From a virus (lineage: Duplodnaviria > Heunggongvirae > Uroviricota > Caudoviricetes): 26,407 bases of DNA. The notes under the pieces are model-generated. The model was not told where the DNA came from, did no database searches, and saw only the letters and a list, made by a program, of their open reading frames with translations. A program made the translations under genes and the position numbers. The stretch spans positions 64,001 through 90,407 of IMG/VR virus record IMGVR_UViG_3300022660_000062. One strand, written 5' to 3'. Shown here piece by piece: positions 2,952 through 24,907 of this stretch (positions within the stretch are counted from its first letter, which is position 1; each line of letters opens with the position of its first letter).

Positions 2952-3173
2952 ATGTTTGATAAAATTGTTGAATCAATGTTACAGTTTAGTAATACATTCT
3001 GGATGTTGCTCTGTGTTCTTATCTTTGCAATGACAGGTTCTTTTGAGGGTATGCTGATCAGTGGCGTGTTTGCTGTTGTAGTACTCATCATGGAGCTATT
3101 CAGTTGCATTCAGAGAGCAAAGAAAAATAAACGACGTAAGGAACGGACTCATGGAAATCAGAAAGTTACATGA
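2952..3173 (+). CDS. Small membrane protein (73 aa, two hydrophobic segments, basic tail)
   Basis: GAGGGAG RBS; hydrophobic FWMLLCVLIFAM and LISGVFAVVVLIMELF; overlaps the start of the 1629-aa gene. Confidence 0.7.
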   Translation: MFDKIVESMLQFSNTFWMLLCVLIFAMTGSFEGMLISGVFAVVVLIMELFSCIQRAKKNKRRKERTHGNQKVT

Positions 3174-6100
3174 ATCAGATGAGCTTCAAGATAGAGCTAA
3201 GAAACACAAGAAAAACAACAAAGGACTCAGTTTTTACTGTACTCTAAATCCGGATGCAGGAAATGTTGAGCATAATGTTGCAATGTTTAATCATATGAAT
3301 ACTCCAGCCGAAAGTCCTTCTGTTAATCCTTGTGGTCCGATGGCTGAAGCTATGAATACAGATGAGGTTTCACATCTATTCAAGTTGCATGTTGGAGATA
3401 TTGTTGAATATGAAGGTCAAGAGTTTACTGTTGACGCTATACGCAATGATCCTGATCATACAGAGCTTGTTCCTTCGATGCTGAAACTTGGAGATGACTG
3501 GGTTCCTGAAGAATGGGTTGCCCTGAATTTTGATCATAAACTAAGAGAGGATAATAGTAAGATGGATTCACAGATTGAATTGAATTACACCGATCTTGAA
3601 GTGACCATTGTTACAAGACCTCGCAGACCTTCCAGTTATCATTTTGAGTATGATCGAGATGAAGCACAGACAGTTGAAGAGACGATTGATTACGAGTTTG
3701 CTGTTCCGAGATCTGATATTGTGGATTTCATCTATGAAAACATGACTGAAAATGATTTTGCAGATATCGATACTGCAACTGAGGCTGAGGTACTTGAATT
3801 CATTAACAAGAATTTTGACACATTGTTTGCCAAATATGAGTCAATGATTTTGGACGCTTATAGAGATCGAGCAAGAGAAGACGCAGAGGAACATATGAAC
3901 GAATCATTAACAAATAAAGAGCTCGGTGAAGCTACTTGTGGCGTAGAGAAGTTTGTTTCATCACTCGGAAAAGATCTACATGAAGCTTTTTTGAGTAAGT
4001 TGATTGATAGTAATACTTCTGAAGAGCTTCTCAGATTAGAAGCTCTGTATGAGAAGTATGCTCGAGCACACGATGATATGCATACACAGAAGATTGTTGA
4101 AAAGGTTAGATCTGCAATTGCTTCATGCGCAGAAAATACTCAACCCTTAGCTGAGTCGGTGAATGAATACGTTATCATGGCAGTATGTAGCGATGGTAAA
4201 AAACAGTATTACAATGTTTCTTCAGCACCACACTGGGTAGCTAAAGCCAAGGATGCAACAATCTTTGATGACATGGACGAGGCAAGAGCTGTCTGGTTCA
4301 AGTTGGATAAGAAATCTTTCAAGAGAGTATTCATTCCTAACTACGATCATGAAAAAATGAACGAGGCTGTTGACATTGACAAACAGTATCAGCTTGACCT
4401 TCTGCTTGACCGCATCGAAGAAGTTATGGACTGGAAACTCAACAAGAAGTGTAAGACAAGAACTCTTGGCAATAATACTTATCGTGTTGTTCATACTTCT
4501 GGAAACACTTCAATGATTGTTAGATTTGATGTTTCCGACCCTGTCAAGCCACTCACTTTCATGATTGATAAGAAAGGTCCATTCACTGCAAAGAATGAGT
4601 CAGAAGCGGCTAATATCATCTTACGTGAGCTTCAGAACAAACACTCTGACTCATTTGATATGTTTAAGAATGAGGGTTTGAGTGATAGAATTCGTAAGAA
4701 CGACTTGAACTATGATGATGAGCTTGATGCTTATCTTGCATCTGAGGGTGATACAGAAGTGCAGTTCCAAGATCGTGAAACTCATACACATGAATTCCGC
4801 ACAAAGAAAAATCAGTGGGGAAGAAGTTATGTTGATGGGCAGTACAATACACAACCCAAAGTAGCTTCTCATACTTGGGGTCGTGTTTGGAAAGATGGTA
4901 AACTTGTAAAACAGTCTGAAGGTCCAAAGTATCAAGTAAGAGCTGATATTGCAAAATATCTTGATTCTGAAGGTAACTTGGATGAGTCTAAAATCCCTGA
5001 CAACTGGACTAAGTATCGTGGAGCTTGGATGTATCCAGTTTATGGTGGATGGGAAGCAAATCTTGATGGCTTACATTATGAAGCTGAAACTGAAGATGAA
5101 TTGAAGTTAAAGATTGATTCTGCAGTTCGTGATGGGTATACAAAGGATAACAAACTAGCACCGTTGTATCGAGATACACTACCAGCTTATGGTGGTATGC
5201 TCGATGAGGCTTGGAGTCCCGATTACATTGATTGCCCTGTTTGTGGCGATATTTCATTTGACGCAAAGAGGGGCAGATGCACTCAGTGTGCATATCGTGA
5301 ATCTGTTGAGGACGATACTGACGATTTAGAGCATCCTGATCAAGAGTTTGATTCTGCAAAGACCTCTATAAATTCTACTAAGTTACCTGCGGTTTACAGA
5401 ATGGTTAAGATTCCTCAAGGAACTACTGGTGTTGACTTCGGTGGTGGATCTTTTGATAATGCAGTAGAGCACATCCGTGATCTTGGAGCAACTCTATGCG
5501 TCTATGATCCTTATAATCGTTCCGCAGAGCATAATCGAGAAGTTATCAAGACATTGAAAGGTAACGGCGGTGCTGACTGGGCTATCAACTCAAATGTTTT
5601 GAACGTTATCAAGGAACCTGAAGCTCGTAAAGCTGTTTTACAGAATATTTCAAAGATTACAAAATCTGGCGCTCCTGTTTACATTACTGTCTACGAGGGT
5701 CGTGGAGATGGTAAAGAAGGAGCTACTAAGTCAGGTTATCAGTTGAATCGTAGAACTCAAGATTACCTTGCTGAAATTCAAGAAGTATTTCCTGATGCAG
5801 TACGTAAGGGTAAGTTGATTATTGCTCATAACGGCAGAGGACATGTTAACGAAAGTAACAATGCCTATAGTTACAAAGATTACACAATCATCGATGCTGG
5901 TTCTGGTTGGAAAGTTAAGGATGCTTCTCAGAAGTGGGTTGGCAACGAATTTGCAACCGATAGAGACGCAGAGGAGTTTGTTGACTCTCTGAATGAGTCC
6001 TTTTTGGACAGCGATGATAACTACGAGTATGTAGCTAGTAAGTCAGTACTTGATTCAGATGGTTTCTATACTGATTACACTTGGTACAAGAACATTGATG

Positions 6101-8040
6101 GTGTGAATGTATTCGTGTTTGGTGACAATGATATCTACAAGCCTGCTGATGGTTACATTGATCATGAAGAGGAAGATGATACCGCTGCTCAGGAATGGTT
6201 TGATTCTTACAACGGATTTGAAGAAGATATTGTTGACGAGAACTTAGATACAAGCAATGATGTCTTCTGTGTCGATGACCAGTTGGAATGGACTGACTTG
6301 TCTGGTGTGAAGTTCCGAGCACTTGTAACTGATGTCAATGATGATGTTGTAGTTCTCGATATGATGCCCGTAAGCGGAGCTCCTGTTACCAGAACTTTTG
6401 AGCTAACTTGTGACTCTAATGGCAAGGAATGTATCATTGTTGATATGGCCTCCGATAAGAGTGATGCTGTTTATGTTTATCCTCCATATGAAGATCTTGA
6501 AGAGAGCACTGCTTCAAACAAAGTAGTATATCCTAACGGTGAACCTGTTACAGATATTGATCTGAATCGTGCACTTGATTATATGTACGGTACTGATAGA
6601 AATCCTGAGTGGACATACACTGATGCAGAGATGCAGCGGGCAATTTACTACTGGATGGATAAGACTGATCCACATCCATCAGGAAAGTCTTACATGAGCT
6701 TACAAGAATCCTACAACATCAAGTTCTATCAAATTTTCCAAGCCCCATCTAAGCCTACAGAAAATGGTAAGATGATTGGCCAGAGAGATACTCTGAGTGC
6801 TGCCATTGACTTCGGAGAGGATCGTTGTGGTCCTGGAAAGTTCTTTATCAAGGGTGTTTGCGATGATGGCAAAACTAGATACGTAGATTTCTTTAGAAAA
6901 GCAAGGGGTTATGTTCCTTTTGCCAACTACAAAGATGACGTAACAGAATCTTTTGAAGATGATGGACCAGTTTATGTTGCATCTTCAGTTGAGAGTCTGA
7001 ACAACTACTGTGCTGGTTTAGGTGACGCTTGTAAAAGATTACGTGATGGAAACATGTGTTCTTATCGTGGTTATGAAGTAGAATTTGTCGATGGTGAGTA
7101 CAATGTGTTCTTGCTGGAATCAATGAACGAATCCTTTGATGACTATCATTATGCAGTTTACAACAATGATGCTCTTTTGAGAGACAAGCTCTGGAGTGTC
7201 TCTGACGCACTTGAGTTCATTCATGCAAATGGTGGCAACATTATCAAACTTTCAAAAGATGGTGTTGATACTGTTATCTGGAAAGATGGTAAGGCAGTTG
7301 GAAGCGGATTTATCGGTAAGGGCATAGATGCTGATGGAAACGATGTTCACTTTGAAGATGGTGAAGATGTTCCAACTCATGCAGCTCCAGAACCTTTCAA
7401 TCCTAGAAAGTGGTTGTACGGTGAGTCAAAAGAAAACCGACCTCTGTACATTATCAGAGACAGTCACGGAAATCAACTATCTGCTCCTAATCCTGACGAC
7501 GAAGAGCTGTGGGATAGAGTTGCTTCTATGGAAGCAAGAGGAAGACGTGGACTGTGTGTAGTTGCTTATACCGGCAAGAAAGAATCACTGAAAGAGTGGA
7601 ATGAATTCAGTGATGACGATGTTGAAGATGATTTGACTCATGCAGCTGTTTACGGCGGCGATAGCAAGTACTGCAAAGAATGCGGTGCTGTAAAGAAATA
7701 TGATGAGGACGGCTTTTCATATTGTCCTGAGTGCTGTGGTGAACTTGACGAGTCCTACTGGTACAATGATCCTGAACTTCGTCAGAAACAAGATCAGCTA
7801 ATTTCTGAATTAGAAGCTGATGGATTTGAAGAAACAGATGGTCAATCATATGGCACTAAGCATTGGACATTCTTCCGCAAGAGAGTTGATGGTAAGGGAG
7901 TCTGGAAAGCAATCTTTGTTGATACTGGATCAAAAGAAGCTGCAATAATTGATGTAACTTATGGTCAAGTTCGTGGTTATGAGCCACTTGATAGTTTCGA
8001 TGCTCTAAGAAGAGATCTTGGAAACAAGTTATTGCCATAA
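3151..8040 (+). CDS. Large acidic multi-module protein, putative capsid-internal polyprotein (SAM methyltransferase module, two Zn-ribbons)
   Basis: Uninterrupted 1629-aa ORF with AAGGA RBS. Recurrent [L/M/V]-X-E-[S/A] motifs; DFGGG/YDPY/NVLNVI methyltransferase motifs; CPVC-CTQC and CKEC-CPEC pairs. The CDS is certain; the function is inferred. Confidence 0.85.
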   Translation: MEIRKLHESDELQDRAKKHKKNNKGLSFYCTLNPDAGNVEHNVAMFNHMNTPAESPSVNPCGPMAEAMNTDEVSHLFKLHVGDIVEYEGQEFTVDAIRNDPDHTELVPSMLKLGDDWVPEEWVALNFDHKLREDNSKMDSQIELNYTDLEVTIVTRPRRPSSYHFEYDRDEAQTVEETIDYEFAVPRSDIVDFIYENMTENDFADIDTATEAEVLEFINKNFDTLFAKYESMILDAYRDRAREDAEEHMNESLTNKELGEATCGVEKFVSSLGKDLHEAFLSKLIDSNTSEELLRLEALYEKYARAHDDMHTQKIVEKVRSAIASCAENTQPLAESVNEYVIMAVCSDGKKQYYNVSSAPHWVAKAKDATIFDDMDEARAVWFKLDKKSFKRVFIPNYDHEKMNEAVDIDKQYQLDLLLDRIEEVMDWKLNKKCKTRTLGNNTYRVVHTSGNTSMIVRFDVSDPVKPLTFMIDKKGPFTAKNESEAANIILRELQNKHSDSFDMFKNEGLSDRIRKNDLNYDDELDAYLASEGDTEVQFQDRETHTHEFRTKKNQWGRSYVDGQYNTQPKVASHTWGRVWKDGKLVKQSEGPKYQVRADIAKYLDSEGNLDESKIPDNWTKYRGAWMYPVYGGWEANLDGLHYEAETEDELKLKIDSAVRDGYTKDNKLAPLYRDTLPAYGGMLDEAWSPDYIDCPVCGDISFDAKRGRCTQCAYRESVEDDTDDLEHPDQEFDSAKTSINSTKLPAVYRMVKIPQGTTGVDFGGGSFDNAVEHIRDLGATLCVYDPYNRSAEHNREVIKTLKGNGGADWAINSNVLNVIKEPEARKAVLQNISKITKSGAPVYITVYEGRGDGKEGATKSGYQLNRRTQDYLAEIQEVFPDAVRKGKLIIAHNGRGHVNESNNAYSYKDYTIIDAGSGWKVKDASQKWVGNEFATDRDAEEFVDSLNESFLDSDDNYEYVASKSVLDSDGFYTDYTWYKNIDGVNVFVFGDNDIYKPADGYIDHEEEDDTAAQEWFDSYNGFEEDIVDENLDTSNDVFCVDDQLEWTDLSGVKFRALVTDVNDDVVVLDMMPVSGAPVTRTFELTCDSNGKECIIVDMASDKSDAVYVYPPYEDLEESTASNKVVYPNGEPVTDIDLNRALDYMYGTDRNPEWTYTDAEMQRAIYYWMDKTDPHPSGKSYMSLQESYNIKFYQIFQAPSKPTENGKMIGQRDTLSAAIDFGEDRCGPGKFFIKGVCDDGKTRYVDFFRKARGYVPFANYKDDVTESFEDDGPVYVASSVESLNNYCAGLGDACKRLRDGNMCSYRGYEVEFVDGEYNVFLLESMNESFDDYHYAVYNNDALLRDKLWSVSDALEFIHANGGNIIKLSKDGVDTVIWKDGKAVGSGFIGKGIDADGNDVHFEDGEDVPTHAAPEPFNPRKWLYGESKENRPLYIIRDSHGNQLSAPNPDDEELWDRVASMEARGRRGLCVVAYTGKKESLKEWNEFSDDDVEDDLTHAAVYGGDSKYCKECGAVKKYDEDGFSYCPECCGELDESYWYNDPELRQKQDQLISELEADGFEETDGQSYGTKHWTFFRKRVDGKGVWKAIFVDTGSKEAAIIDVTYGQVRGYEPLDSFDALRRDLGNKLLP

Positions 8041-8056
8041 ATCTTAATATAGAATC

Positions 8057-8093
8057 TTGTAGCCGGTGCTGTTGATTTCAGCACCGGCTACAA
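8057..8093. terminator. Strong hairpin, probable terminator or RNA processing site
   Basis: Perfect 15-bp stem TTGTAGCCGGTGCTG / CAGCACCGGCTACAA, 7-nt loop; weak U-tract. Confidence 0.7.
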
Positions 8094-8135
8094 TTGTATA
8101 TCACTATGTACTATTATATGTGAAGGAGATATACA

Positions 8136-10958
8136 ATGGCATTTACTGCAAGTAAACTACTAGAAATTGCTATTGCCGAGCTTGGCTACAAAGAAAAAGC
8201 TTCTAACTTTCAGCTCGATGATAAAGAAGCCAATGCTGGTAGTGGCAACTGGACGAAATATGCTCGTGATCTTCACACCGCAGGATATTATCAAGCAGCT
8301 AAGAACGGTTATGCATGGTGTGACATGTTTGTTGACTGGTGCTTCTTACAGCTTGGTGGCAGCAAAGAAAAAGGCGAATGGCTCGAATGCCAAACAGGAC
8401 TTTATGGTGCAGGATGCGAATGGTCATCTAACTGTTATCGTTGGGCAGATCGTTGCGGAACTGAGCCGAAAGTCGGTGCACAAATCTTCTTTGCTAAAAA
8501 CGGTAAAGGATCTGAAGAGCATACAGGTATTGTAGAAAAGTTTGACAGTAACTATGTTTACACAATTGAGGGTAACGCAAGTAACATGGTAAAGCGTAAA
8601 ACATACGCTCGTAATTCTGATTACATCCTGTGTTATGGATATCCAAGATTTGATGAGACTACAAATGAGACGCAAGCAACAACTTCAACAATTGCTGCTG
8701 ATCATTTTGACAAAGGGGATGTCGTTAAGATTGTTTCTGGCGCTAACTGGTTAAGTGGATCTGCTGTTCCTACATGGGTGATCAAGAAGGAATGGATTAT
8801 TAAAGAAGTTTCTACTTCTGATGGTAGAGTTGTTGTCAATGAATCAGTTGATGGAGCAAACAAGATCAATAGTCCTATTCACTATTCTTCTCTAGTTCTT
8901 GTTAAGGCTGCTAATCCGAAAGAGGATAAAGTTGAAACAGAGCTGGACGGAGGAAACAAGGAAACTGAGGTTGCTCAAAGTAGTTTGAAGTATTCTACTG
9001 CAAATCCGCCGCTTGTTTGTATGCAGACTCAGAGCACTTGTTATAAGGGCACAACCGAAATGACTGTTCTTGGTGTGCTGTGGCATAGTACAGGTGCAAA
9101 CAACAAGACTATCAAGCGCTATGTTCAGCCTAGTGACAATGATCCAAACAAAGATGCTCTGCTTAAGTTAATCGGTAAGAATCAGTATAACAATGACTGG
9201 AACCATATTGACAGACAAGCTGGTTTGAATGCTTGGATTGGTACATTAGCTGATGGCACAGTTACGACCGTTCAGACAATGCCCTGGAACTTTAGACCTT
9301 GGGGCTGTGGAAGTGGTAAGAATGGTTCTTGTAACAGTGGCTGGATTCAGTTTGAGATCTGTGAGGATAACTTACAAGACGCTGACTATTTCAACAAGGC
9401 ATACACAGAAGCTTGCGAGCTAACTGCGTATCTTTGTAAGATGTTTAATCTTGATCCTCATGGAACCATTAACTATAATGGAGTTAAAGTTCCCGTTATC
9501 CTTTGTCATGCAGATTCTTATGATCTTGGTTTCGGATCAAATCATGGTGACATTGATCACTGGTTCCCGAAGCATGGTAAGTCAATGGTAACAGTAAGAA
9601 ATGATGTTGCAAAGTTACTCCAGAATTCAACACAAGCTGCTCCAGTAGAAGGTGTATACCAGAAGGGTGTTGCAACTCAGCTTTCTAAGAATTTCAAATC
9701 AACTGAATTTGATTGTCATGGAGATGGCTGTTGCACTACAACAGAAGTAGATCCAAAACTTGTTACTTATTTACAAACAATTCGTGATCATTTTGGCAAG
9801 GCTGTTAATATTAGCAGCGGATATAGATGTGCAACACACAACAAGAGTGTTGGAGGAGCTGTTGGTTCAAGACATACAAAAGGTCAAGCAGCTGATATCT
9901 ATATTAACGGTGTAACTCCTTTGGAGATTGCTCGTTACGCAGAACAACTTGGCATCTTAGGAATTGGTTTATATGAAACTGATGAAGATGGTCATTTTGT
10001 ACATGTTGACACAAGAGCGACAAAGTCATTCTGGTATGGACAAGCACAAGCTAAGAGAGATACATTCCAAGAGCCTGTTAAAATTGATATATCAAAAGTT
10101 AACACAGCAAAAGCTGATCCGAAGCATGTTTGGGACTTCTTGAAAGCAAAAGCATTGAATGATTTTGCAGTGGCTGGTTTGATGGGCAATTTGCTTGCTG
10201 AGTCAAACATGTTACCAATCAACTTGCAAAACACTTATGAGAAGAAGCTCGGTATGACAGACGCTGAGTATACAGCAGCAGTTGACCAGGGAATCTACAA
10301 AGATTTCGTCAAAGATAGCGCAGGCTATGGTCTAGCTCAGTGGACATACTACAGCCGTAAGGAAGACTTGTTGGAGTATGCTACTTCTCAGAAGAAATCA
10401 ATCGGTGATTTAGATATGCAGCTGGAATTCTTGTGGACTGAGCTTCAAAGATACAAGGCTGTTATGAAGCAGTTGAATGAAGCAACTTCAGTTAGGGAAG
10501 CTTCTGATGTAATTCTTCATGACTATGAAGCTCCTGCTGATCAAAGCGAGGCTGTTGAAATCAAGCGTGCTGAATTTGGACAGAAGTATTTTGATGACTA
10601 TGCCGTATGTATGCACAAGTCAACAGAAATTCAGAACCAGAAAGATGCAACTTGTACAGAAGCTGGATATACAGGTGATAAGGTATGCTCTGAATGTAAC
10701 TTTGTAGTAGAAGTGGGGTCACTTATTCCTCCTATTCAGCACAACTATAGCTTGACAGGAAAGCTTGAGCCTACAATTGAAACAGAAGGCTACACTGGAG
10801 ATCAAGTTTGTTCAAGATGCAATCATACAATCAAGGGAGAAGCAATCAAGAAGTTGAGTCCGATTGTTGTTACTCCTGAAGATGATGAGGTTAAGATTAC
10901 TATCAAGAAGAGCTGGATCCAGAAGTTGATTGAGTGGTTGCTCAGCTTGTTAAAATAA
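8136..10958 (+). CDS. Multi-catalytic peptidoglycan hydrolase 1: CHAP + SH3-like + amidase_2 + peptidase M15 + phage lysozyme-2 + Cys/His repeats
   Basis: CHAP: WCDMFVDW, HTGIV, TIEGN. Amidase: VLWHSTG, WIQFEICED, ILCH, NHGD. M15: SGYRC..HN..VGG...SRH..GQAADI, HVD. Lysozyme-2: AGLMGNLLAES, GYGLAQWT. AAGGAG RBS. Confidence 0.92.
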   Translation: MAFTASKLLEIAIAELGYKEKASNFQLDDKEANAGSGNWTKYARDLHTAGYYQAAKNGYAWCDMFVDWCFLQLGGSKEKGEWLECQTGLYGAGCEWSSNCYRWADRCGTEPKVGAQIFFAKNGKGSEEHTGIVEKFDSNYVYTIEGNASNMVKRKTYARNSDYILCYGYPRFDETTNETQATTSTIAADHFDKGDVVKIVSGANWLSGSAVPTWVIKKEWIIKEVSTSDGRVVVNESVDGANKINSPIHYSSLVLVKAANPKEDKVETELDGGNKETEVAQSSLKYSTANPPLVCMQTQSTCYKGTTEMTVLGVLWHSTGANNKTIKRYVQPSDNDPNKDALLKLIGKNQYNNDWNHIDRQAGLNAWIGTLADGTVTTVQTMPWNFRPWGCGSGKNGSCNSGWIQFEICEDNLQDADYFNKAYTEACELTAYLCKMFNLDPHGTINYNGVKVPVILCHADSYDLGFGSNHGDIDHWFPKHGKSMVTVRNDVAKLLQNSTQAAPVEGVYQKGVATQLSKNFKSTEFDCHGDGCCTTTEVDPKLVTYLQTIRDHFGKAVNISSGYRCATHNKSVGGAVGSRHTKGQAADIYINGVTPLEIARYAEQLGILGIGLYETDEDGHFVHVDTRATKSFWYGQAQAKRDTFQEPVKIDISKVNTAKADPKHVWDFLKAKALNDFAVAGLMGNLLAESNMLPINLQNTYEKKLGMTDAEYTAAVDQGIYKDFVKDSAGYGLAQWTYYSRKEDLLEYATSQKKSIGDLDMQLEFLWTELQRYKAVMKQLNEATSVREASDVILHDYEAPADQSEAVEIKRAEFGQKYFDDYAVCMHKSTEIQNQKDATCTEAGYTGDKVCSECNFVVEVGSLIPPIQHNYSLTGKLEPTIETEGYTGDQVCSRCNHTIKGEAIKKLSPIVVTPEDDEVKITIKKSWIQKLIEWLLSLLK

Positions 10959-10978
10959 CGGTTATTTCACATACAAAG

Positions 10979-11008
10979 AATGAGGTGCTATTCGCGTAGC
11001 ACCTCATT
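10979..11008 (+). terminator. Probable intrinsic terminator
   Basis: 12-bp stem AATGAGGTGCTA / TAGCACCTCATT, loop TTCGCG, followed by TCTT. Confidence 0.75.
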
Positions 11009-11058
11009 TCTTGTATATAAAGTATATAGATCAAACTTTGAGGAAGGATGTTGATAGT

Positions 11059-13569
11059 ATGGCGTTACGTTTGAATGTTGTTGCCATCGCTGATGGTGGT
11101 GGTAAGCCTGCCTCTCAGACCGAAGTTGTTCATTCCTATACAGTTGATGCTCTGCTTGCAATTGCTCTAGCAGAGAAGGGCTACAAAGAGAAGAGTAGTA
11201 ATTCAAGTTTAGATAGTAAGACAGCTAACGCAGGAAGTAACAACTACACAAAGTATGCAAGAGATCTTCATAATGCTGGTTATTACCAAGCAAGCAAGCA
11301 AGGATTTGCTTGGTGTGATATGTTCGTTGATTGGTGTTTCTATAAGCTTGTTTGTAATGTAACAGGTAAGACTGGAAAAGATGCTCGGTTGATAGCTAAC
11401 GAGTTGATCTGCGTGAATGAAAATCAACTATATGGAGCAGGATGTGCTGAGTCTCGTGGTTACTACAAGGAAAAAGGACGTTTAGGAAATCTACCAGTAA
11501 AGGGCGCTCAAATATTTTTCTGGGAAGCCGGTGAAGTTTCTCACACAGGTATTGTTACAGGATTTGATGCTAATCAAGTTTATACCATTGAGGGTAATAC
11601 AAATAATCAAGTTAATGAGCGAGCATACAAGCGGAATGATAGCAGTATTGTTGGCTATGGCTATCCGAAGTTAACAGGACTGAAAGTACCAACCGGATCT
11701 ACTGTTCCTCCTGACCCTCCAAGCTCTTATGGCGAGGATACCAGTACTGAAAATACAGACAGTTATAACGGTGGTAACAGTGTCGGCGGAAGCGGCTCAG
11801 TCATCTCCTATACATTTGATGGGCTGAAATATTCAGATGATAACCCACCCTTGTACTGCCCGCAAACTCAAAGCACTTGTTGGAGAGGCACCAGTAAGAA
11901 TATGACTATTCGCGGAGTGTTGTGGCACGATACTGGTGCTGGAAACCCTGAGATTCGTAGATATGTTCAACCCGATGACAATGCCAATGATCGAGAGTAC
12001 TGGATAAACCTACTTGGTAAGAATCAGTATAACAATGACTGGAATCATGCTGAACGACAAGCAGGAATGAATTGCTGGATAGGTAAACTAGCGGATGGAT
12101 CTGTTACAACTGTTCAGACAATGCCTTGGAATTATAAACCTTGGGGTTGTGGCGGCGCATGTAATGACGGCTGGATTCAGTTTGAAATCTGTGATGATGT
12201 TGACCACGGCGATGATCCCGACTACTTCCATGCTGCTTATGAAGAAGCTTGCCAGATAACGGCATACTTGTGTGCAAAGTTTAATCTAGACCCTCTTGGA
12301 ACTGTGGAGTTCAAAGGAAAACAAGTTCCTGTTATACTTGATCATCGAACTTCTTGTAAACTTGGACTCGGAAGTAACCACGGTGATGTTAGAGGTTGGT
12401 TCAAGAAATATGGTAAATATGCTGACGAAGATGGCATGCAGATTGTTCGTCAAGATGTTGCAGCACTTTTAAGTAAGGGCGGTAACTATATTCCAAATGT
12501 TAGGATTGACGATATTGTTACTGTTGATCCCGGAGCAACAGCAAAAGATGGTTCAGTTGCTGCGCCATGGATTACATCTAAGCGTTGGAAAGTTTCTAAT
12601 ACATCCTCAGAGGATGAGTATGCGATTCTTGGCCAGCGCGAGGATACCGCATCTGTTGTACTGAATAGGGCTTACAAGAAATCAAATCTGACTGTAGTTA
12701 CTGCTAATGGATCTGTAACTCCTTCTCCTAACACAGGCAACTTAACTAACAAAGAAAGAATTTGGAACATTCTTTCTAGCAAAGTTAAGGATAGTAATGG
12801 ACAAACAAACTATTTCGGAGTTGCTGGAATCATGGGTAACATGATGGCAGAGTCTGGTCTTAGACCAAACAATCTTCAGAATACATATGAAAAAAGTTTA
12901 GGTTACAGTGATGAAAGTTACACTGCTGCTGTTGATAACGGAACATATACAAACTTTGTACGAGACAGCGCAGGTTATGGACTAGTTCAGTGGACATACT
13001 GGTCTTTGAAGGAAGAACTACTTAAATACGCTCAAGAACATAACAAATCCATTGGTGATCTAGATATGCAAGTAACATTCTTGTGTCATCAGTTGTCAAC
13101 GGGATATACATCTGTTTGGAATACTTGTTGTAACGCTAAAACTGTTAAAGAAGCCTCTGATAAGATGCTACATGGTTTCGAACGACCTTACGGACATGAT
13201 GGCGTCAACAAAGAGTCACAAGAAAGTAAGAGAGCTCAGTTTGGTACTGATATTTACAACGAGCTAGTCAACGGTTGTTCTCATTCGGAAACAGTAACAC
13301 GAGATAATTGCGCTGCAACTTGTTCCTCTGATGGATACACAGGTGATGAGGTTTGTTCTTCCTGTGGCTTAACTGTTAGATTCGGTGACATTATTCCTGC
13401 AACTGGTCATAACTATCAGTATGGTGTATGTACTATTTGTGGGGCAACTCCAGAGCAAGATAATGGTGGAGGAGGATCTGTTCCAAACATCACAAATGGT
13501 ATTGTTACTCGAGATGATTTGATTCAGATTCTTTCTGTTTTGAAAGATATGCTAAGTAGAGAAAGTTGA
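11059..13569 (+). CDS. Multi-catalytic peptidoglycan hydrolase 2, paralogue of hydrolase 1: CHAP + amidase_2 + SH3-like + phage lysozyme-2 + Cys/His repeats
   Basis: WCDMFVDW/HTGIV/TIEGN; VLWHDTG/WIQFEICDD/ILDH/NHGD; AGIMGNMMAES/GYGLVQWT. Start moved from 11011 to ATG 11059, which follows AGGAAGGA. Confidence 0.92.
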   Translation: MALRLNVVAIADGGGKPASQTEVVHSYTVDALLAIALAEKGYKEKSSNSSLDSKTANAGSNNYTKYARDLHNAGYYQASKQGFAWCDMFVDWCFYKLVCNVTGKTGKDARLIANELICVNENQLYGAGCAESRGYYKEKGRLGNLPVKGAQIFFWEAGEVSHTGIVTGFDANQVYTIEGNTNNQVNERAYKRNDSSIVGYGYPKLTGLKVPTGSTVPPDPPSSYGEDTSTENTDSYNGGNSVGGSGSVISYTFDGLKYSDDNPPLYCPQTQSTCWRGTSKNMTIRGVLWHDTGAGNPEIRRYVQPDDNANDREYWINLLGKNQYNNDWNHAERQAGMNCWIGKLADGSVTTVQTMPWNYKPWGCGGACNDGWIQFEICDDVDHGDDPDYFHAAYEEACQITAYLCAKFNLDPLGTVEFKGKQVPVILDHRTSCKLGLGSNHGDVRGWFKKYGKYADEDGMQIVRQDVAALLSKGGNYIPNVRIDDIVTVDPGATAKDGSVAAPWITSKRWKVSNTSSEDEYAILGQREDTASVVLNRAYKKSNLTVVTANGSVTPSPNTGNLTNKERIWNILSSKVKDSNGQTNYFGVAGIMGNMMAESGLRPNNLQNTYEKSLGYSDESYTAAVDNGTYTNFVRDSAGYGLVQWTYWSLKEELLKYAQEHNKSIGDLDMQVTFLCHQLSTGYTSVWNTCCNAKTVKEASDKMLHGFERPYGHDGVNKESQESKRAQFGTDIYNELVNGCSHSETVTRDNCAATCSSDGYTGDEVCSSCGLTVRFGDIIPATGHNYQYGVCTICGATPEQDNGGGGSVPNITNGIVTRDDLIQILSVLKDMLSRES

Positions 13570-15515
13570 GTGATTGGATGGCTGAAGAAAGATTTGTATA
13601 CCAAGTAGGAGATCTAATTCAGATCGATCCTACAGCAACACGCATTGATGGATCCTCAATTGATGCTGACTTGAAGGGAAATAACTACAACTGGTTTGTT
13701 ACGGATGTTGATCCTACAAACTTTACTTTGACTCTCGGAGCATACAGAGCATTTGGATTGAGATATAGATGGAATCCTCCGATTGTAATTCATGAGGATT
13801 TTGTGTCTAAGATAGTTAAACTTGTTTGTAGACACGCAAACGCAGTTGTTGACTCAAAAGTTGAACCTACTTGCTTGGAAGATGGTCTAACTGAAGGCAG
13901 GCACTGTCCTGACTGTGGTGAAGTTCTTCTAGCACAGCATAAGATTCCTAAACTGGAACACGAATATGTGTACGATATGGATCAAGGTGTTAAAACTTGT
14001 ACAAAGTGTAAACATCAGATATTTGACTCAGAACGATCCATTGATCTTACAGGAGACGACATCAGAAAGATGATTCAGATAATTGAGGCTATGCTTTCAT
14101 ATGATTCATCTTCACCAGTTCCCCCTGAAGTTATTCCTGAGGTAGATCCTCCTGTGGAGCCAGTATTTAGTTCCGATATTACATTTACAAGCGAGTGGAA
14201 AACAGATCTGGATCTTCCTTACTTGTTTTATACTCCTTCAAGTGCAACAACCGACGGAACAACTCCGCTCATTGTTTGGCTACACGGTTCAGATGAGTGC
14301 GGTGCAAGCGAGAGCATATTCCGCGACAGAGGCTTGCCTGCTGTTTTGAAAAGCTGGTCATTGAAAGGTTTCAACGCATACATACTTTGCCCCAGACTTC
14401 CTGGAGGTATCAAATGGACTCAACGATCCGATTCTGTTTTCAGTATGATTTCTAACATTGTTAGTAAGTACAAAGTTGATACACGAAAGATCATACTTAT
14501 GGGCCACTCTCTTGGTGGTATTGGAACTGAGTACATTGCGTTCCAGAAACCTGGTTATTTCTCGTGTCAGATTATAATGAGCGGTTACAGTTCTGGAGTA
14601 GATCTATCTCAGTTAAAAGATCTACCAACAAGGGTGTATGCTGAAAATTCAGAGTATTCAGCTCATTACAACACACTGAAAAATACATTTGGGCAGGAGG
14701 CTTGTACGGTTCTCAACTGTGGTCATGGTGAAGTTCCTGGTAAGGCATTAACTATTGAAAAGTCAGACGCTGCCGGTGTATCTGATCTTCTGTACTGGGC
14801 AATCTCTCAAACAAATGAACAACTTGATGATACAGAGAGTGAGCCTAAATTACAAGTTCCCTTTACAACTGTTGTTACAGCTGATGGTGTAAATCTTAGA
14901 ACTGGACCTGGAACAGAGTATGACGTTGCGGATAGCAATAACAAGGCTTATGCTGGACAACAGCTGACTATAGTTGAAATTGTACAATCCGGTAATCATA
15001 ATTGGGGTAAGCTAGATCCGAATATCTGGAAAACCTCAAAGACAAGTAGTTGTATCGGAAAATCTGATCGCTGGATAGCACTAGAGTACACAACTGCTTT
15101 TAACTCGGAAACATTTAAGACTCCTACATGGATATATCCATTATCATATCAAAGGCTATCAAGCCCTTATGGTTATAGAATACATCCTATCAGTGGAGAA
15201 TGGAAAATGCACTGGGGTGTAGATCTTGGAGCATACTGGGGAACTCCGATATATGCAACAAAAGCAGGAACTGTTTCAACAGTGGCTTATCAAGAGGATG
15301 GGGCCGGAAATTATATCTGTATAAAACATGAAGATGGAACTCAGTCTGATTATTTCCATCTTGAAGAGCAACTTGTTTCTGTTGGTGACAAAGTTGAAGC
15401 CGGACAGCATATCGGTAGATGTGGCAGCACTGGCGGATCAACAGGCCCTCATTTGCATTTCCAGATATGGGAGAACGGCTCTAGACAAGATCCGGCAGAG
15501 TACATTGATTTCTAA
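13566..15515 (+). CDS. Multi-domain hydrolase 3: SH3-like + Cys/His repeats + alpha/beta-hydrolase esterase + SH3b + M23 peptidase
   Basis: PLIVWLHGS and GHSLGG nucleophile elbow; VNLRTGPGTEY (SH3b); HWGVDLG and HLHF (M23). TTG start overlaps the upstream TGA; the exact start is uncertain. Confidence 0.88.
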   Translation: MSDWMAEERFVYQVGDLIQIDPTATRIDGSSIDADLKGNNYNWFVTDVDPTNFTLTLGAYRAFGLRYRWNPPIVIHEDFVSKIVKLVCRHANAVVDSKVEPTCLEDGLTEGRHCPDCGEVLLAQHKIPKLEHEYVYDMDQGVKTCTKCKHQIFDSERSIDLTGDDIRKMIQIIEAMLSYDSSSPVPPEVIPEVDPPVEPVFSSDITFTSEWKTDLDLPYLFYTPSSATTDGTTPLIVWLHGSDECGASESIFRDRGLPAVLKSWSLKGFNAYILCPRLPGGIKWTQRSDSVFSMISNIVSKYKVDTRKIILMGHSLGGIGTEYIAFQKPGYFSCQIIMSGYSSGVDLSQLKDLPTRVYAENSEYSAHYNTLKNTFGQEACTVLNCGHGEVPGKALTIEKSDAAGVSDLLYWAISQTNEQLDDTESEPKLQVPFTTVVTADGVNLRTGPGTEYDVADSNNKAYAGQQLTIVEIVQSGNHNWGKLDPNIWKTSKTSSCIGKSDRWIALEYTTAFNSETFKTPTWIYPLSYQRLSSPYGYRIHPISGEWKMHWGVDLGAYWGTPIYATKAGTVSTVAYQEDGAGNYICIKHEDGTQSDYFHLEEQLVSVGDKVEAGQHIGRCGSTGGSTGPHLHFQIWENGSRQDPAEYIDF

Positions 15516-15572: not shown

Positions 15573-16181
15573 ATGGCTGAGTTCTGCAAGGACTGCTTCA
15601 AGAAGATTGAGTCATCTGTTAGTGAACAAGATCTCGTACTTAGTTCTGATGCAGAGTTATGTGAAGGCTGTGGTGAGATGAAGCCAGTCGTTCTTGAAGT
15701 AAAAACTTCCGAACCTTCAATGACTGTTGCAGAGTGTCAAGTAGAGACTCAAAAACACATTGAAATGGTTCGTAAATATATTAGATTCATGATTGATAAA
15801 ATTGAGATGCGCGGTGTAAAACATGATGCTTCAAAATTAGAATCTCCAGAGGTTGAACTATTCACACAGTTCACTCCTAAGCTTGCATCTACTACTTACG
15901 GTAGTGATGAATATAAAAGTTATCTTGAAGGCTTAAAACCTGCTCTTGATCATCACTATGCAAGTAACAGACATCATCCTGAGCACTTTGTTAACGGCGT
16001 TAACGACATGACTCTGATTGACATTATCGAGATGTTTTGTGATTGGAAAGCAAGTACTCACAGAATGAACGATGGAAATCTCTTAAAGAGCATTGATGTT
16101 AACACAGACAGATTTCACATCGAAGAGCAGCTAAAACAAATCTTTGTTAATACTGCTAGAATGATTGATGAGCATGAATAA
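15573..16181 (+). CDS. HD-like (DUF5662-type) protein with N-terminal CxxC...CxxC
   Basis: HIEMV, HDASKL, HHYASNRHHPEH and EMFCDW motifs; N-terminal CKDC and CEGC. Confidence 0.75.
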   Translation: MAEFCKDCFKKIESSVSEQDLVLSSDAELCEGCGEMKPVVLEVKTSEPSMTVAECQVETQKHIEMVRKYIRFMIDKIEMRGVKHDASKLESPEVELFTQFTPKLASTTYGSDEYKSYLEGLKPALDHHYASNRHHPEHFVNGVNDMTLIDIIEMFCDWKASTHRMNDGNLLKSIDVNTDRFHIEEQLKQIFVNTARMIDEHE

Positions 16182-16229
16182 CACATTCATGTATATACAA
16201 CTGTAATCTTACATAAAGGAGATATGTTT

Positions 16230-16547
16230 ATGAATTGGGAAATTCTACTAACTGTTCTTGCAAGTATTTGTACAGTTGTTGCTCTATTTATCAGCTACTA
16301 TTTCTACATCAAGAGAAAGATTGAGGCTGAAGTTCCTGGAGCGATCAACGGTGCAGAAGACACTGGCATGAGCGGTGCAGAAAAGTTTGAAGAGGCTGTA
16401 GATACAATCTACGCGCTTATTCCTGTTGCAGTAAGGCCTTTCATTACAAGAAGTCTTGTGGAAACACTTGTTCAAGAAGTGTTTGATAAGATGGAAGAAT
16501 ATGCAAGAAAGCAGCTTGACAAGGAAGCAGAGCCGACTGAAGCTTAA
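16230..16547 (+). CDS. Probable holin (LL-H-like, single N-terminal TM)
   Basis: N-terminal hydrophobic helix, then AINGAE...GAEKFEEAV...VETLVQE pattern; lies downstream of the lysins. AAAGGAGA RBS is 7 nt from ATG 16230 but only 1 nt from ATG 16224. Confidence 0.7.
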   Translation: MNWEILLTVLASICTVVALFISYYFYIKRKIEAEVPGAINGAEDTGMSGAEKFEEAVDTIYALIPVAVRPFITRSLVETLVQEVFDKMEEYARKQLDKEAEPTEA

Positions 16548-18335: not shown

Positions 18336-18836
18336 ATGAAGTTCAGTAAGTTGTTTCTTGATGAATCCTTGTTTGATAGTACATCAATGAAGTACGATGA
18401 TGATTTCAGTGAGGCTGAACTTCCTCCTGAGAGTTTGCAGGGACCGACCTCTGGGTCCGATTCTGGTGTAACAGATTTAGTCATAACTGCAATAAACGAC
18501 GAGTGGGAAGCAATTCGGACTTATAATTCTATCATCGAGACTTTGAAGTATGAAGCTCCTAACAATGAAGATTATGTAAGATTTATTCAGATTCTGAATG
18601 ATATCAATGCAGAAGAAAACAAACATGTGGGACAGCTTCAAGAAATTCTACAGAGATTATCACCAAACGCGAAATTCATCGACAAAGGACGTGATGAAGG
18701 AAGATCACAGTTTAATTTTGCGAACGGTTTGTTACAAGTTCAGGCCTGGGAGCCGAAACAAACAACTGCCACAGTAACTCCAGATGTTTCTGGTGAAGAT
18801 GTGTGCACATTAACTGACATTGATGACGATATGTGA
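18336..18836 (+). CDS. Ferritin-like (two-helix, EncFtn/rubrerythrin-like) protein with N-terminal LDES leader
   Basis: AINDEWEAIRTY...DINAEENKHVGQL matches the E..E..Y / EExxH diiron ligand pattern. Confidence 0.65.
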   Translation: MKFSKLFLDESLFDSTSMKYDDDFSEAELPPESLQGPTSGSDSGVTDLVITAINDEWEAIRTYNSIIETLKYEAPNNEDYVRFIQILNDINAEENKHVGQLQEILQRLSPNAKFIDKGRDEGRSQFNFANGLLQVQAWEPKQTTATVTPDVSGEDVCTLTDIDDDM

Positions 18837-18848
18837 GGATTGATACAT

Positions 18849-22697: not shown

Positions 22698-24410
22698 ATG
22701 AGTGATAATCCTATTCTTCAAGAGCTAGAACAATATGTAGACTGGCTCAGCTTAGAATACTATGATAAACGCATCAAGGATTACATTGATGTTCGTTGTA
22801 CTGAGGATCTAAGAATTGGTGGTGAAGTTTCCGCTGCTTGGTTAAGTATTGCACCCGTTGCAGAAAATCAGAACAACCTTTACATTGTAAATGAAGCTTT
22901 TACAACTGGTGCAACATTCTCCGAGAGTAACATTGACTGTGACAAGGGCACAGTAGTTTACCTTGCAAGTACTGATGCAGGATTGAGATACAAACTTCTA
23001 GCAAGAGTCGTTCCGGAAGATAGTTCTCTAGCGGATTCAATCTTGCATGTTTCAGATTCTGTTGATAAGTTACGCAAGCGAGTTGAATTGCTAGAAATGG
23101 AGCAATCAAACTTCACTACTCAGTTATCAGAACTTGTTGATCAAGTTGAAGATCATGAGACTGAATCTAAATATCAGTTTGAAGCTGTAACGACTGCCAT
23201 TCAAGCAACAGTAAAGGATCTTGAGGAAGTTAATGAAGATATTGCAGATGTTAGAGATGATATCAAACATCTCTCTGACGATTTTCAAACAGTTAATCAC
23301 GATATCCACGATATCCTGCACAGTCACGAAACAAGATTAAATAGTTTTGAAAATTCTTTTGCTACAAAAGAATCGGTTGAGGATCTTGAAAAGAAAATTG
23401 ACTCAATTCCTCAAGTTAGTCTCGATGGTTATGCAACTGAACAGTATGTTAAGGATCAGATTGCCGGAATACAAGCTCCCGATATGAGCGGATATGCTAC
23501 TATTGCCGACATTGATGCAAAAGTTGCTGCTCTTGTTGATGGTGCTCCTTCGGCACTCAACACATTAGCCGAACTTGCTGAGGCTCTGAATGATCAGAAA
23601 GATGTTCTTGATACATTTGCAACAAAATCTGATCTTGCTCCTGTAGCTACATCGGGTAGTTACAAAGATCTAGTTGATACTCCTGAAATTCCATCAGTTG
23701 AGGGTCTTGCTTCAGAAATATATGTGCAAGAAGCAATCAAAGCTATCCCTTCTGTTGACTTGACTGGTTATGCAAAAGCAGAGGATATTCCCGATGTTAG
23801 CAAGTTTGTTACTGCTGAGGATCTTCCTGCAGTTCCAACAAAGGTTAGCGAGCTAGAAAATGACTCAGGTTACTTAACGGAACATCAAAGTTTGGATGGA
23901 TTAGCTACTGAAGAATTTGTACAACAGCAAATTGATGCTATTCCTGATGTTGATCTAAGTAACTATGCAAAGAAGAGCGATCTTCCTGACACAAGTAAAT
24001 TCTTAACTGAAGTTCCTCAGGAGTATATAACAGAGAGTGAGCTTGATGCAAAGGGTTATTTAACAGAGCATCAAAGTTTAGAAGGCTTAGCAACAGAAGA
24101 GTTCGTTCGTCAACAGATTGATGCGATTCCTGAAGTAGACACAAGTGAATTAGCATCAAAAGCTGACCTTGAGCTTAAAGCGGATAAAACTTATGTTGAT
24201 CAACAGTTAGATAATGTAACTGTTGACTTAACAGGTTATGCGACTGAGGATTTTGTTAGAACTGAGATTGCTAATGCTCAGCTCGGTGATGATGGTGAAA
24301 CAATCATTGATTTATCATACCTTGCAACAAAAACCGATCTTTCAAATGAAGTTGCAACATTGAACAGACGCATTGACGAATTAAAAGTTATTCAGTATGG
24401 AACATTCTAA
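22698..24410 (+). CDS. Tail-fibre-like protein with internal repeats
   Basis: LVDGAPSALNTLAELAEAL, LAPVATSGSYKDL, VPTKVSELENDSGYLTEHQSL and repeated DL.GYA/TE.FV units, all common in phage fibre proteins. Confidence 0.75.
   Translation: MSDNPILQELEQYVDWLSLEYYDKRIKDYIDVRCTEDLRIGGEVSAAWLSIAPVAENQNNLYIVNEAFTTGATFSESNIDCDKGTVVYLASTDAGLRYKLLARVVPEDSSLADSILHVSDSVDKLRKRVELLEMEQSNFTTQLSELVDQVEDHETESKYQFEAVTTAIQATVKDLEEVNEDIADVRDDIKHLSDDFQTVNHDIHDILHSHETRLNSFENSFATKESVEDLEKKIDSIPQVSLDGYATEQYVKDQIAGIQAPDMSGYATIADIDAKVAALVDGAPSALNTLAELAEALNDQKDVLDTFATKSDLAPVATSGSYKDLVDTPEIPSVEGLASEIYVQEAIKAIPSVDLTGYAKAEDIPDVSKFVTAEDLPAVPTKVSELENDSGYLTEHQSLDGLATEEFVQQQIDAIPDVDLSNYAKKSDLPDTSKFLTEVPQEYITESELDAKGYLTEHQSLEGLATEEFVRQQIDAIPEVDTSELASKADLELKADKTYVDQQLDNVTVDLTGYATEDFVRTEIANAQLGDDGETIIDLSYLATKTDLSNEVATLNRRIDELKVIQYGTF
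23868..24140 (+). repeat. Duplicated coding unit GYLTEHQSL[D/E]GLATEEFV.QQIDAIP[D/E]VD with 186-nt (62-aa) period
   Basis: Copies start at 23868 and 24054; near-identical protein with diverged synonymous sites. Confidence 0.85.
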
Positions 24411-24427
24411 GAAAGGAGGAACATGTA

Positions 24428-24826
24428 GTGCAATTTCAGATTAAGTATGGATTAAGAAGAAACATTGACAAGATTGCTGATGCAAACAAGATTGAAGGTT
24501 GTTGGTATATTTGTACTGATACATTTGAAGTCTTTGTGTGCTTGAATGGTAATCTTGAGCCAATCAAAGCTGCCTCCTCTTTTGACGATGATATTGTCGA
24601 CCTGAAAGCTCGTGTTCAAGCGTTGGAAGATGCTTCTGAGTCTGAGGTCAAAATAAATACAATCTTTGATCTTCCTGAACAAGGTCTTAGTAACATTGTA
24701 TATATTGTTGTTAAGGATAATGCTGCATACAGATGGAATGAAGACACAGGCAACTATGTATGCATCGGTAGAGACTGGATGGAAATCAATCGTATCAACG
24801 GTGGAGATGCAGCCTCTGTATTCTGA
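24428..24826 (+). CDS. Small tail-fibre-associated protein (GTG start)
   Basis: AGGAGG 8 nt upstream of GTG; LP..G..NIVYIV....AYRW...Y..IG...INGG motif common in fibre-associated proteins. Confidence 0.7.
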   Translation: MQFQIKYGLRRNIDKIADANKIEGCWYICTDTFEVFVCLNGNLEPIKAASSFDDDIVDLKARVQALEDASESEVKINTIFDLPEQGLSNIVYIVVKDNAAYRWNEDTGNYVCIGRDWMEINRINGGDAASVF

Positions 24827-24907
24827 TAACAACACATAGATAATCAAGTATTTACTTGCTGTGGATATTAGTTTGTAATTATAATTATGAAAGGTACATA
24901 ATCAGTT

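Follow-up and report, generated by a model that had tools for sequence, protein, structure and literature searches.

A conserved three-gene array of multidomain lysins, probably a polyvalent endolysin cassette, in a lineage of large uncultured phages

Three tandem lysin genes, here termed lys1, lys2, and lys3, were analyzed in a 26,407-nucleotide (nt) stretch of viral DNA (Caudoviricetes), referred to below as the window, which forms the last 26.4 kb of the 90.4-kb IMG/VR record IMGVR_UViG_3300022660_000062 (positions 64,001 to 90,407). The three genes encode nine predicted catalytic domains, and an array of three genes with six to nine such domains occupied the same position in all four syntenic relatives that were recovered. 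Judged from sequence, the genes probably form a polyvalent endolysin cassette, conserved across a lineage of uncultured gut phages with large genomes (estimated >200 kb), and a Holin_LLH-like gene lies close by. The host of these phages would be a Gram-positive member of the Clostridia, probably in or near the Oscillospiraceae. The array is a lineage-defining extreme variant of the modular lysins of Gram-positive phages and not a new kind of system. It features an undescribed tag shared by all three proteins and the fusion of an esterase with a peptidase M23 domain.

Catalytic domains and active-site residues

Pfam and PHROG scans bore out the first-pass annotation, made from the sequence alone, in its count of nine hydrolase domains of six types in three co-oriented genes (Table 1). 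The lys1 protein matched Amidase_2 (4e-9), Peptidase_M15_3 (2.8e-22), and Phage_lysozyme2 (1.6e-27), and its CHAP domain scored 48.8 bits against a cutoff of 26 only when the N-terminal 195 amino acids (aa) were scanned alone. A PDB sequence search with this CHAP domain returned nothing meaningful. Matches in lys2 were to CHAP (5.3e-6), Amidase_2 (5.5e-11), and Phage_lysozyme2 (9.5e-24), and the match in lys3 was to Peptidase_M23 (1.3e-30). These five families all scored above the curated gathering cutoffs, and the lys3 esterase was barely over its own (PF00756, 22.8 versus 22). By sequence, the esterase matched Thermotoga EstA (PDB 3doh, 5e-11) and LC-Est1C (3wyd, 3e-10), and its structural model (predicted local distance difference test [pLDDT], 90.8; predicted template modeling score [pTM], 0.90) matched 3doh in Foldseek (1.8e-11). 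The structures nearest to the model were EstA, a phospholipase/carboxylesterase, polyhydroxybutyrate (PHB) depolymerases, and acetylxylan and feruloyl esterases. The domain contained the GHSLGG nucleophile motif, a conserved Glu356, and His383, as is characteristic of alpha/beta-hydrolase carboxylesterases.

All canonical catalytic residues were present and were invariant or nearly so among homologues, as the first-pass annotation had indicated. These included C62, H129, and E145 of CHAP; H317, H458, H470, and D472, plus E407, of Amidase_2; H580, D587, and H623 of M15; H545, D549, H594, H625, and H627 of M23; and S311, E356, and H383 of the esterase. E407 of lys1 aligned with E90 of PlyL, the residue that is Ala in entry 2ar3, and lysozyme residue E689 of lys1 aligned with the catalytic E45 of phi29 gp13, whose N-terminal domain is homologous. 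Neither hydrophobic nor membrane segments were found in lys1, lys2, or lys3, consistent with the earlier observation that signal peptides are lacking. The proposal that glycan, amide, and peptide bonds would be attacked jointly is plausible, and ester bonds may be added to it, with each domain homologous to a characterized hydrolase class and its catalytic residues retained.

The esterase Ser and His were both kept in 10 of 12 homologues and both lost in the other 2, a paired pattern that supports a working catalytic pair in the others, including the window. In two lys3 proteins (P0278, encoded by L086:13111-15045, and P0276), the nucleophile Ser was lost (GHGSGG and GHALGG) and the His was replaced by Gln, while M23 was intact; the esterase thus appears to have turned into a pseudoenzyme domain at least twice. 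Another lys3 relative (P0279, 844 aa) had a GDSL/SGNH esterase inserted between the alpha/beta-hydrolase and the SH3/M23 part, giving two esterases and one peptidase in one chain. The substrate of the lys3 esterase is most plausibly O-acetyl groups on peptidoglycan or wall polysaccharide. A role as an O-acetylpeptidoglycan esterase is suggested because the domain is fused to M23, because its structural neighbors include acetylxylan esterase (5x6s) and feruloyl esterases, and because an SGNH esterase was added in P0279.

Conservation and divergence among syntenic relatives

The four relatives (L085, L086, L092, and L093) were recovered by exact-protein look-ups; IMG/VR searches for close relatives, in which lys3 and a 432-aa protein encoded downstream served as queries, returned nothing, nor did a megablast search against deposited phages. 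The common gene order, which was pieced together and was spanned whole by no single relative locus, comprised Tpt1, a dCMP deaminase, a helix-turn-helix (HTH) protein, a small membrane protein, one or more polyproteins, the lysins, DUF5662, a single-segment protein of 105 to 109 aa, and further shared genes. The lys1, lys2, and lys3 proteins measured 940, 836, and 645 aa, respectively, in the window; 942, 825, and at least 565 aa in L085; 953, 843, and 665 aa in L092; 434 (M15-lysozyme), 813, and 639 aa in L093; and 719 (CHAP-M15-lysozyme), 281 (lysozyme only), and 644 aa in L086.

The most divergent relative, L092, kept the full set of nine domains. Between the window and L092, identity was high for lys1 (80%), the DUF5662 protein (85%), and the 107-aa membrane protein encoded downstream (88%), versus 47% for lys2 and 38% for lys3, nearly as low as that of tail-fiber-like genes (31 to 33%). 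This uneven divergence of lys1 versus lys2 and lys3 is a hint that their roles may be divided. The lys1 and lys2 proteins are old paralogues: the domains they share were 48 to 62% identical, and the two proteins formed clear orthologue groups. Full-length homologues of lys3 were found in 11 clusters only.

These comparisons bear on whether the array could be largely redundant or decaying, a by-product of rampant domain shuffling and duplication in which only some domains are active, as opposed to a set selected for nine activities. Several domains are indeed missing from L086 and from the 434-aa lys1 of L093, and the esterase Ser and His have been lost in at least two lineages. In natural two-domain staphylococcal and streptococcal lysins, moreover, one domain is often nearly silent. 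However, every canonical catalytic residue was kept in all nine domains of the window, the nine-domain version persisted in L092 despite the divergence of its lys3, and lys1 and lys2 are old paralogues with clear orthologue groups. Redundancy or decay of much of the array is considered improbable.

Multicatalytic lysins in other phages

The array was compared with the 120 best lys1-matching clusters in a collection of 5.8 billion proteins. At least three catalytic families were present in 118 of these clusters, most of which combined Amidase_2, M15, Phage_lysozyme2, and SH3_3 in proteins of 700 to 850 aa, several of them on contigs of 110 to 200 kb and some of these near 190 to 200 kb. In an unrelated large phage (L088:10001-13771; carrying NAMPT, NAD synthase, PhoH, and GyrB), a 769-aa lysin combined three catalytic domains, and the next genes encoded a 336-aa ELLD-SH3_3 lysin and a 143-aa membrane protein; this is an independent multilysin cassette. 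On viral contigs of 50 to 60 kb, CHAP, lysozyme, and Amidase_2 modules were shuffled into proteins of 350 to 760 aa. Homologous lysins with two or three domains directly followed small multisegment holin-like open reading frames (ORFs) in four loci (L007, L015, L027, and L054), and in L012 an extra small ORF lay between the two. Deposited relatives were annotated as endolysins, one of which adjoins a holin. A 696-aa Amidase_2-M15-lysozyme-SH3 lysin on a 133-kb contig (L090/L091) read correctly only when TAG was translated as Gln, which identifies a stop-codon-recoded phage.

High catalytic-domain density is rare in the literature, in keeping with the first-pass annotation: only a few multicatalytic lysins were described from the gut (PMC13284279), and a prophage survey reported one lysin with three catalytic domains (PMC13379245). 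Rarity of the array itself was not borne out within its phage group. The array is routine in its own lineage, because all four relatives carry it, and it is the extreme of a widespread, barely described trend, because lys1-matching clusters mostly contain at least three catalytic families.

SH3-like barrels and a shared tag

Each array protein contained a predicted SH3-like barrel and one Cys/His zinc-ribbon repeat with an amphipathic helix, the latter two referred to here as the tag. The SH3-like barrel modeled at the N terminus of lys3 (residues 1 to 85) gave only generic SH3/Tudor/KOW matches in VIA-align (Z of approximately 6), and the Pfam match to SH3_3 was weak (0.0039). In an Amidase_2-GH25 lysin of another phage (L006), the SH3-like module of the array occurred as a triple C-terminal repeat, the usual position for wall binding.

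In the tag, eight Cys/His positions were invariant over a stretch of approximately 70 residues, after which came a linker and an amphipathic helix (approximately 15 residues; hydrophobic spacing of 3 to 4). The tag lay at the C terminus of lys1 and of lys2 and close to the N terminus of lys3. Across all five genomes, exactly one tag was found per array protein, at any position and with any number of catalytic domains, even on the 281-aa, lysozyme-only lys2 of L086. The combination of repeat and helix was found neither in the rest of the 90-kb genome nor in 80 other viral loci.

A profile search with the tag retrieved 25,600 representative proteins. The top matches were giant Firmicute proteins with 10 to 54 copies of the Cys/His repeat, and these proteins also carried SLH, cohesin/dockerin, BspA-LRR, Listeria-Bacteroides repeat, or pilin-type domains (P0121 to P0270). 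The repeat, with a consensus of roughly C-x-H ... T-C-x3-G-x-T-x4-C-x2-C-G ... H ... C-x2-C, is taken to be a common extracellular module because its profile matches these giant Firmicute surface proteins. In the Pfam scans made, it matched no family at the cutoff and gave only below-cutoff zinc-ribbon matches, such as DZR. A Foldseek search of the tag region against the PDB gave no match at an E value of ≤0.001, the zinc-ribbon part being barely covered by the fold searches. That each protein has a single tag, irrespective of its catalytic domains, suggests that the tags share a target or partner, and the shared zinc ribbon and helix point to an undescribed targeting or assembly module.

It is conceivable, though doubtful, that the lysins act as one complex, in which the tags would associate with each other, perhaps in a three-helix bundle, or share a binding partner, such as the 107-aa membrane protein through its cytoplasmic tail; such a complex would be compatible with a role in lysis or in the virion. 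The strict occurrence of one tag per protein in five genomes, its invariant Cys/His positions, the hydrophobic spacing of its helix, and its absence from related lysins on 80 other viral contigs would fit such an arrangement, and multimeric endolysins have precedents (CTP1L, PMC4777826; LysIME-EF1, PMC7098653; phi2638A isoforms, PMC12203907). However, the zinc-ribbon repeat is so common in Firmicute surface proteins that it may be a simple wall-binding or spacer module, and short amphipathic helices have many possible roles. When the three tags were modeled together (lys1 residues 822 to 940, lys2 residues 736 to 836, and lys3 residues 79 to 182), the ipSAE interface scores were 0.08 and 0.03 against a mark of 0.32, without controls, and weigh neither way. 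It is likewise improbable that the tag is a dedicated assembly or docking module that gathers the three hydrolases in a cellulosome-like "lysin complex" or tethers them to one partner, for example the virion or the holin-like protein, with a conserved lys1 core and a fast-evolving, host-specific lys2-lys3 part.

Holin candidates and neighboring genes

The first-pass annotation had stated that a holin follows the lysins. A small membrane protein of 107 aa is indeed encoded downstream, but it lies two genes from lys3, the DUF5662 gene comes first, and no holin family was matched in Pfam. The 107-aa protein gave a weak match to a PHROG holin (6.5e-4) and resembled Holin_LLH clusters in a language-model comparison (Atlas, 0.93), while Pfam scans of this protein and of a second, 73-aa membrane protein yielded only noise. 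Homologues of the 107-aa protein (105 to 109 aa, single segment, 81 to 88% identical) followed the array in L086, L092, and L093, the relatives that reach that far, and it is a candidate Holin_LLH-type holin. The 73-aa protein, which has the shape of a class II holin, is a candidate second holin-like protein; its gene overlaps the start of the polyprotein gene, and an ORF matching it was found in L085 (54% identical) and in L086 (64%). At its N terminus, the DUF5662 protein has a CxxC...CxxC zinc ribbon; it also has a His-rich stretch (HH...RHHPEH) and was 85 to 89% identical in L086, L092, and L093. Its gene may be part of the lysis module.

The gene directly preceding the array encodes a putative capsid-cargo polyprotein of 1629 aa, and tail-fiber-like genes begin approximately 7 kb after the array. 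Short basic leaders ending in L-x-E-S (MEIRKLHES, MKFSKLFLDES, and MAKRRLKNES) were noted on the polyprotein gene (3151-8040) and on genes 18336-18836 and 18840-19862. Such capsid-targeting-like N-terminal leaders were absent from lys1, lys2, and lys3, which lie between leader-bearing genes. Sites of the form [LIVMFY]xES numbered 14 in the polyprotein, whereas the three lysins had 2, 1, and 0. The lysozyme catalytic motif accounts for two of these three lysin sites; the remaining one (VNES, lys1 residues 234 to 237) reads VDKS or IDKS in relatives. The lysins as a protease-processed polyprotein were accordingly rejected as a candidate, with a site density at chance level and the sole site at a domain joint not conserved. 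The lysins thus have neither the leader nor the sites at domain joints that mark T4-type capsid-targeted, protease-processed proteins.

Lysis cassette or virion-associated hydrolases

If the three genes form a lysis cassette, the lysins, having no signal peptides, would presumably accumulate in the cytoplasm, and a small membrane protein (the 107-aa Holin_LLH-like protein, the 73-aa two-segment protein, or both) would make the lesions that give them access to the wall. Many bond types would then be cut at once. Glycan strands would be cleaved by the two phi29-gp13-type lysozyme domains, the MurNAc-L-Ala amide by the two Amidase_2 domains, and stem peptides and cross-links by the two CHAP domains, the M15 domain, and the M23 domain, while ester decorations that would otherwise block the lysozymes, such as O-acetyl groups, might be removed by the CE1-like esterase. 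Targeting to the wall would be provided by the SH3-like barrel of each chain and by the zinc-ribbon repeat, apparently borrowed from Firmicute surface proteins.

Such a cassette is favored by the intact catalytic residues, the lack of signal peptides, the SH3-type modules, the holin adjacency of homologous modules in smaller phages, and the conserved Holin_LLH-like neighbor. It is further favored by the absence of a leader or protease-site pattern, the lack of another common hydrolase family in 90 kb, the paired Ser/His pattern of the esterase, and the gain of an SGNH esterase in one relative. Searches of the 90-kb fragment (41% of the genome) found no Phage_lysozyme, Amidase_3, or GH25 domain and no other common peptidoglycan hydrolase family.

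Several considerations weigh against a role in lysis. The holin candidate has no curated-family match and is parted from the lysins by the DUF5662 gene, and the array sits in a neighborhood of virion genes, between the putative capsid-cargo polyprotein and the tail-fiber-like genes. Large multidomain hydrolases, especially those with the phi29 gp13 lysozyme fold, and M23 domains are typical of virion-associated lysins, and lys2 and lys3 have diverged fast, much as host recognition proteins do. With 41% of the genome in hand, there is room for a separate canonical endolysin elsewhere. Nor does a role in lysis account for the retention of nine domains.

One or more of the three proteins could instead be virion-associated hydrolases, either mounted on the tail or baseplate or carried inside the head for ejection, which would open the thick Gram-positive wall at infection, with the tag as an anchor to a common virion site. 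We regard this as unlikely, although a fair number of observations would suit it. Besides the gene neighborhood and the divergence of lys2 and lys3 to nearly the level of the tail-fiber-like genes, the lysozyme domain is of the phi29 gp13 tail-knob type, and the M23 domain of lys3 matched those of two large deposited chains whose names are usual for virion proteins, "Gp16" (9m7n, 915 aa) and "Internal protein" (9k2v). A shared docking site would also predict that enzymes of variable content, down to the 281-aa lysozyme-only version, bear the same tag. Against this stand the lack of a capsid-targeting leader and of conserved protease sites, the SH3-like, wall-binding-type domain in each chain, the occurrence of homologous modules as holin-adjacent endolysins in smaller phages, and the holin-like gene nearby. 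Moreover, Pfam and PHROG detected no structural domain (tape measure, hub, tail tip, internal core, or beta-helix) in the lysins, only hydrolase, SH3-like, and zinc-ribbon modules, and the PHROG "tape measure" matches to the lysins spanned only the lysozyme or M23 domain. Within this alternative, the roles might also be split: the conserved lys1 could serve as the endolysin and the products of the fast-evolving lys2-lys3 operon could be carried on the virion, or vice versa.

Genomic setting and gene structure

The IMG/VR record was estimated to be 41% complete (CheckV), which implies a genome well over 200 kb, and the lys1 and lys3 proteins were also found, in identical form, on one 254-kb contig. 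All genes of the region are on the + strand, and the GC content is approximately 40%. The program-made ORF list placed the three genes at 8136-10958 (940 aa), 11011-13569, and 13566-15515. The first-pass lengths of 940 and 836 aa held for lys1 and lys2, but 645 aa is preferred over 649 aa for lys3: ATG 13578 is favored as a better start than TTG 13566, judged by the N termini of the relatives. For lys2, the true start is most likely ATG 11059, because TTG 11011 falls within the TTGTATATA motif directly 3' of a 14-bp hairpin.

The strong hairpins of 14 to 15 bp followed by a motif before lys1 and lys2 look like terminator-promoter units. Before lys3, which abuts lys2, there is neither a hairpin nor a motif, so the two genes are probably cotranscribed. 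The motif TGTATAT[ACG] was observed 40 to 48 nt 5' of six start codons, those of the HTH gene, lys1, lys2, the DUF5662 gene, the gene for the 107-aa membrane protein, and a 226-aa gene; besides the units before lys1 and lys2, the motif lies at 2386, 15527, 16190, and 19940. Over the whole record, there were 23 occurrences of TGTATAT[ACG] on the + strand and 12 on the − strand.

Table 1. Features of the lysin array and its surroundings (nt positions in the window)
Feature	Position	Strand	Length	Description
73-aa protein gene	2952..3173	+	73 aa	Two membrane segments, highly basic C-terminal tail; upstream of polyprotein gene
Polyprotein gene	3151..8040	+	1629 aa	Putative capsid-cargo polyprotein
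Hairpin and motif	8057..8101	+		15-bp terminator-like hairpin, directly followed by promoter-like TTGTATAT, 41 nt 5' of lys1 start
lys1	8136..10958	+	940 aa	CHAP (aa 1-178), SH3-like barrel (~190-240), Amidase_2 (~289-500), Peptidase_M15_3 (~510-642), phi29-gp13-type lysozyme (~653-832), Cys/His zinc ribbon and C-terminal amphipathic helix (822-940)
lys1 tag	10599..10955	+		Zinc ribbon and helix
Hairpin and motif	10978..11019	+		14-bp terminator-like hairpin (10978-11009), directly followed by TTGTATATA, 5' of lys2
lys2	11059..13569	+	836 aa	CHAP (aa ~28-210), Amidase_2 (~262-480), SH3-like barrel (~492-545), lysozyme (~561-745), zinc ribbon and helix tag (736-836)
lys2 tag	13264..13566	+		Zinc ribbon and helix
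lys3	13578..15515	+	645 aa from ATG 13578 (649 aa from TTG 13566)	N-terminal SH3-like barrel, tag, CE1-like alpha/beta-hydrolase esterase, SH3_3-like domain, Peptidase_M23 (aa 548-643 in 649-aa, TTG-start numbering)
lys3 tag	13812..14114	+		Zinc ribbon and helix
lys3 esterase	~14151..14849	+		CE1-like alpha/beta-hydrolase
lys3 SH3_3-like domain	~14829..15161	+		
DUF5662 gene	15573..16181	+	202 aa	Between lys3 and small membrane-protein gene in L086, L092, and L093
107-aa protein gene	16224..16547	+	107 aa	One N-terminal membrane segment (aa ~5-28), charged helical tail
Tail-fiber-like genes	22698..26044	+		~7 kb after array

Comparison with known systems and implications

The array shares the CHAP, Amidase_2, Phage_lysozyme2, and M15 families with modular Gram-positive endolysins, such as LysK (CHAP-Amidase_2-SH3b), lambdaSa2, B30, and the rare metagenomic lysins with three to four domains (PMC13284279, PMC13379245), as well as SH3-type modules, the lack of a signal peptide, and the holin adjacency of homologous modules in smaller phages. 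It differs from them in having four catalytic domains in one chain (lys1), three tandem genes throughout a lineage, and a jumbo-phage genome. Unlike the classical C-terminal binding domain, the tag is shared by all three proteins, and the SH3-like barrel lies between catalytic domains in lys1 and lys2.

Pairing of multidomain peptidoglycan hydrolases with an alpha/beta-hydrolase esterase also recalls, as an analogy of logic, the LysA, LysB, and holin cassette of mycobacteriophages, in which LysB is a cutinase-like esterase that acts on mycolyl-arabinogalactan, a nonpeptidoglycan ester linkage. In contrast to LysB, the esterase of the array is fused to M23 and is nearest to EstA, PHB depolymerases, and acetylxylan/feruloyl esterases, and no mycolic acid layer is expected in a Clostridia host. 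No LysB structure was among the top 50 fold matches of the esterase model, which is not evidence of absence, as no dedicated LysB homology search was made. The lys1 and lys2 lysozymes are homologous to that of phi29 gp13 (PDB 3csq, 3csr), including the catalytic Glu, and M23 is likewise present in the array; in gp13, however, both domains are in one small virion protein, whereas the array places them in separate, much larger proteins with binding-type modules. Engineered triple-acting staphylolytic fusions, made to slow resistance (PMC4848530), also combine several bond specificities in one polypeptide, but they are artificial and have three activities, while the array is natural and has four, three, and two domains in its chains. 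Multimeric endolysins (PlyC; CTP1L, PMC4777826; LysIME-EF1, PMC7098653) are precedents for multichain action by means of binding-domain copies or a dedicated subunit, to which the putative assembly module of the array (zinc ribbon and helix) is unrelated.

Natural lysins with three to four catalytic domains have been reported as isolated curiosities (PMC13284279, PMC13379245); here, a whole lineage keeps a three-gene set with up to nine domains, and lysins with three catalytic families are abundant in metagenomes, including on large phage contigs. Together, the lineage-wide array and the abundance of three-family lysins suggest that massively redundant attack on the wall is routine among large phages of Gram-positive gut anaerobes. 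The array also represents a toolbox of predicted domains against Clostridia-type walls, including an esterase-M23 fusion that may remove wall acetylation.

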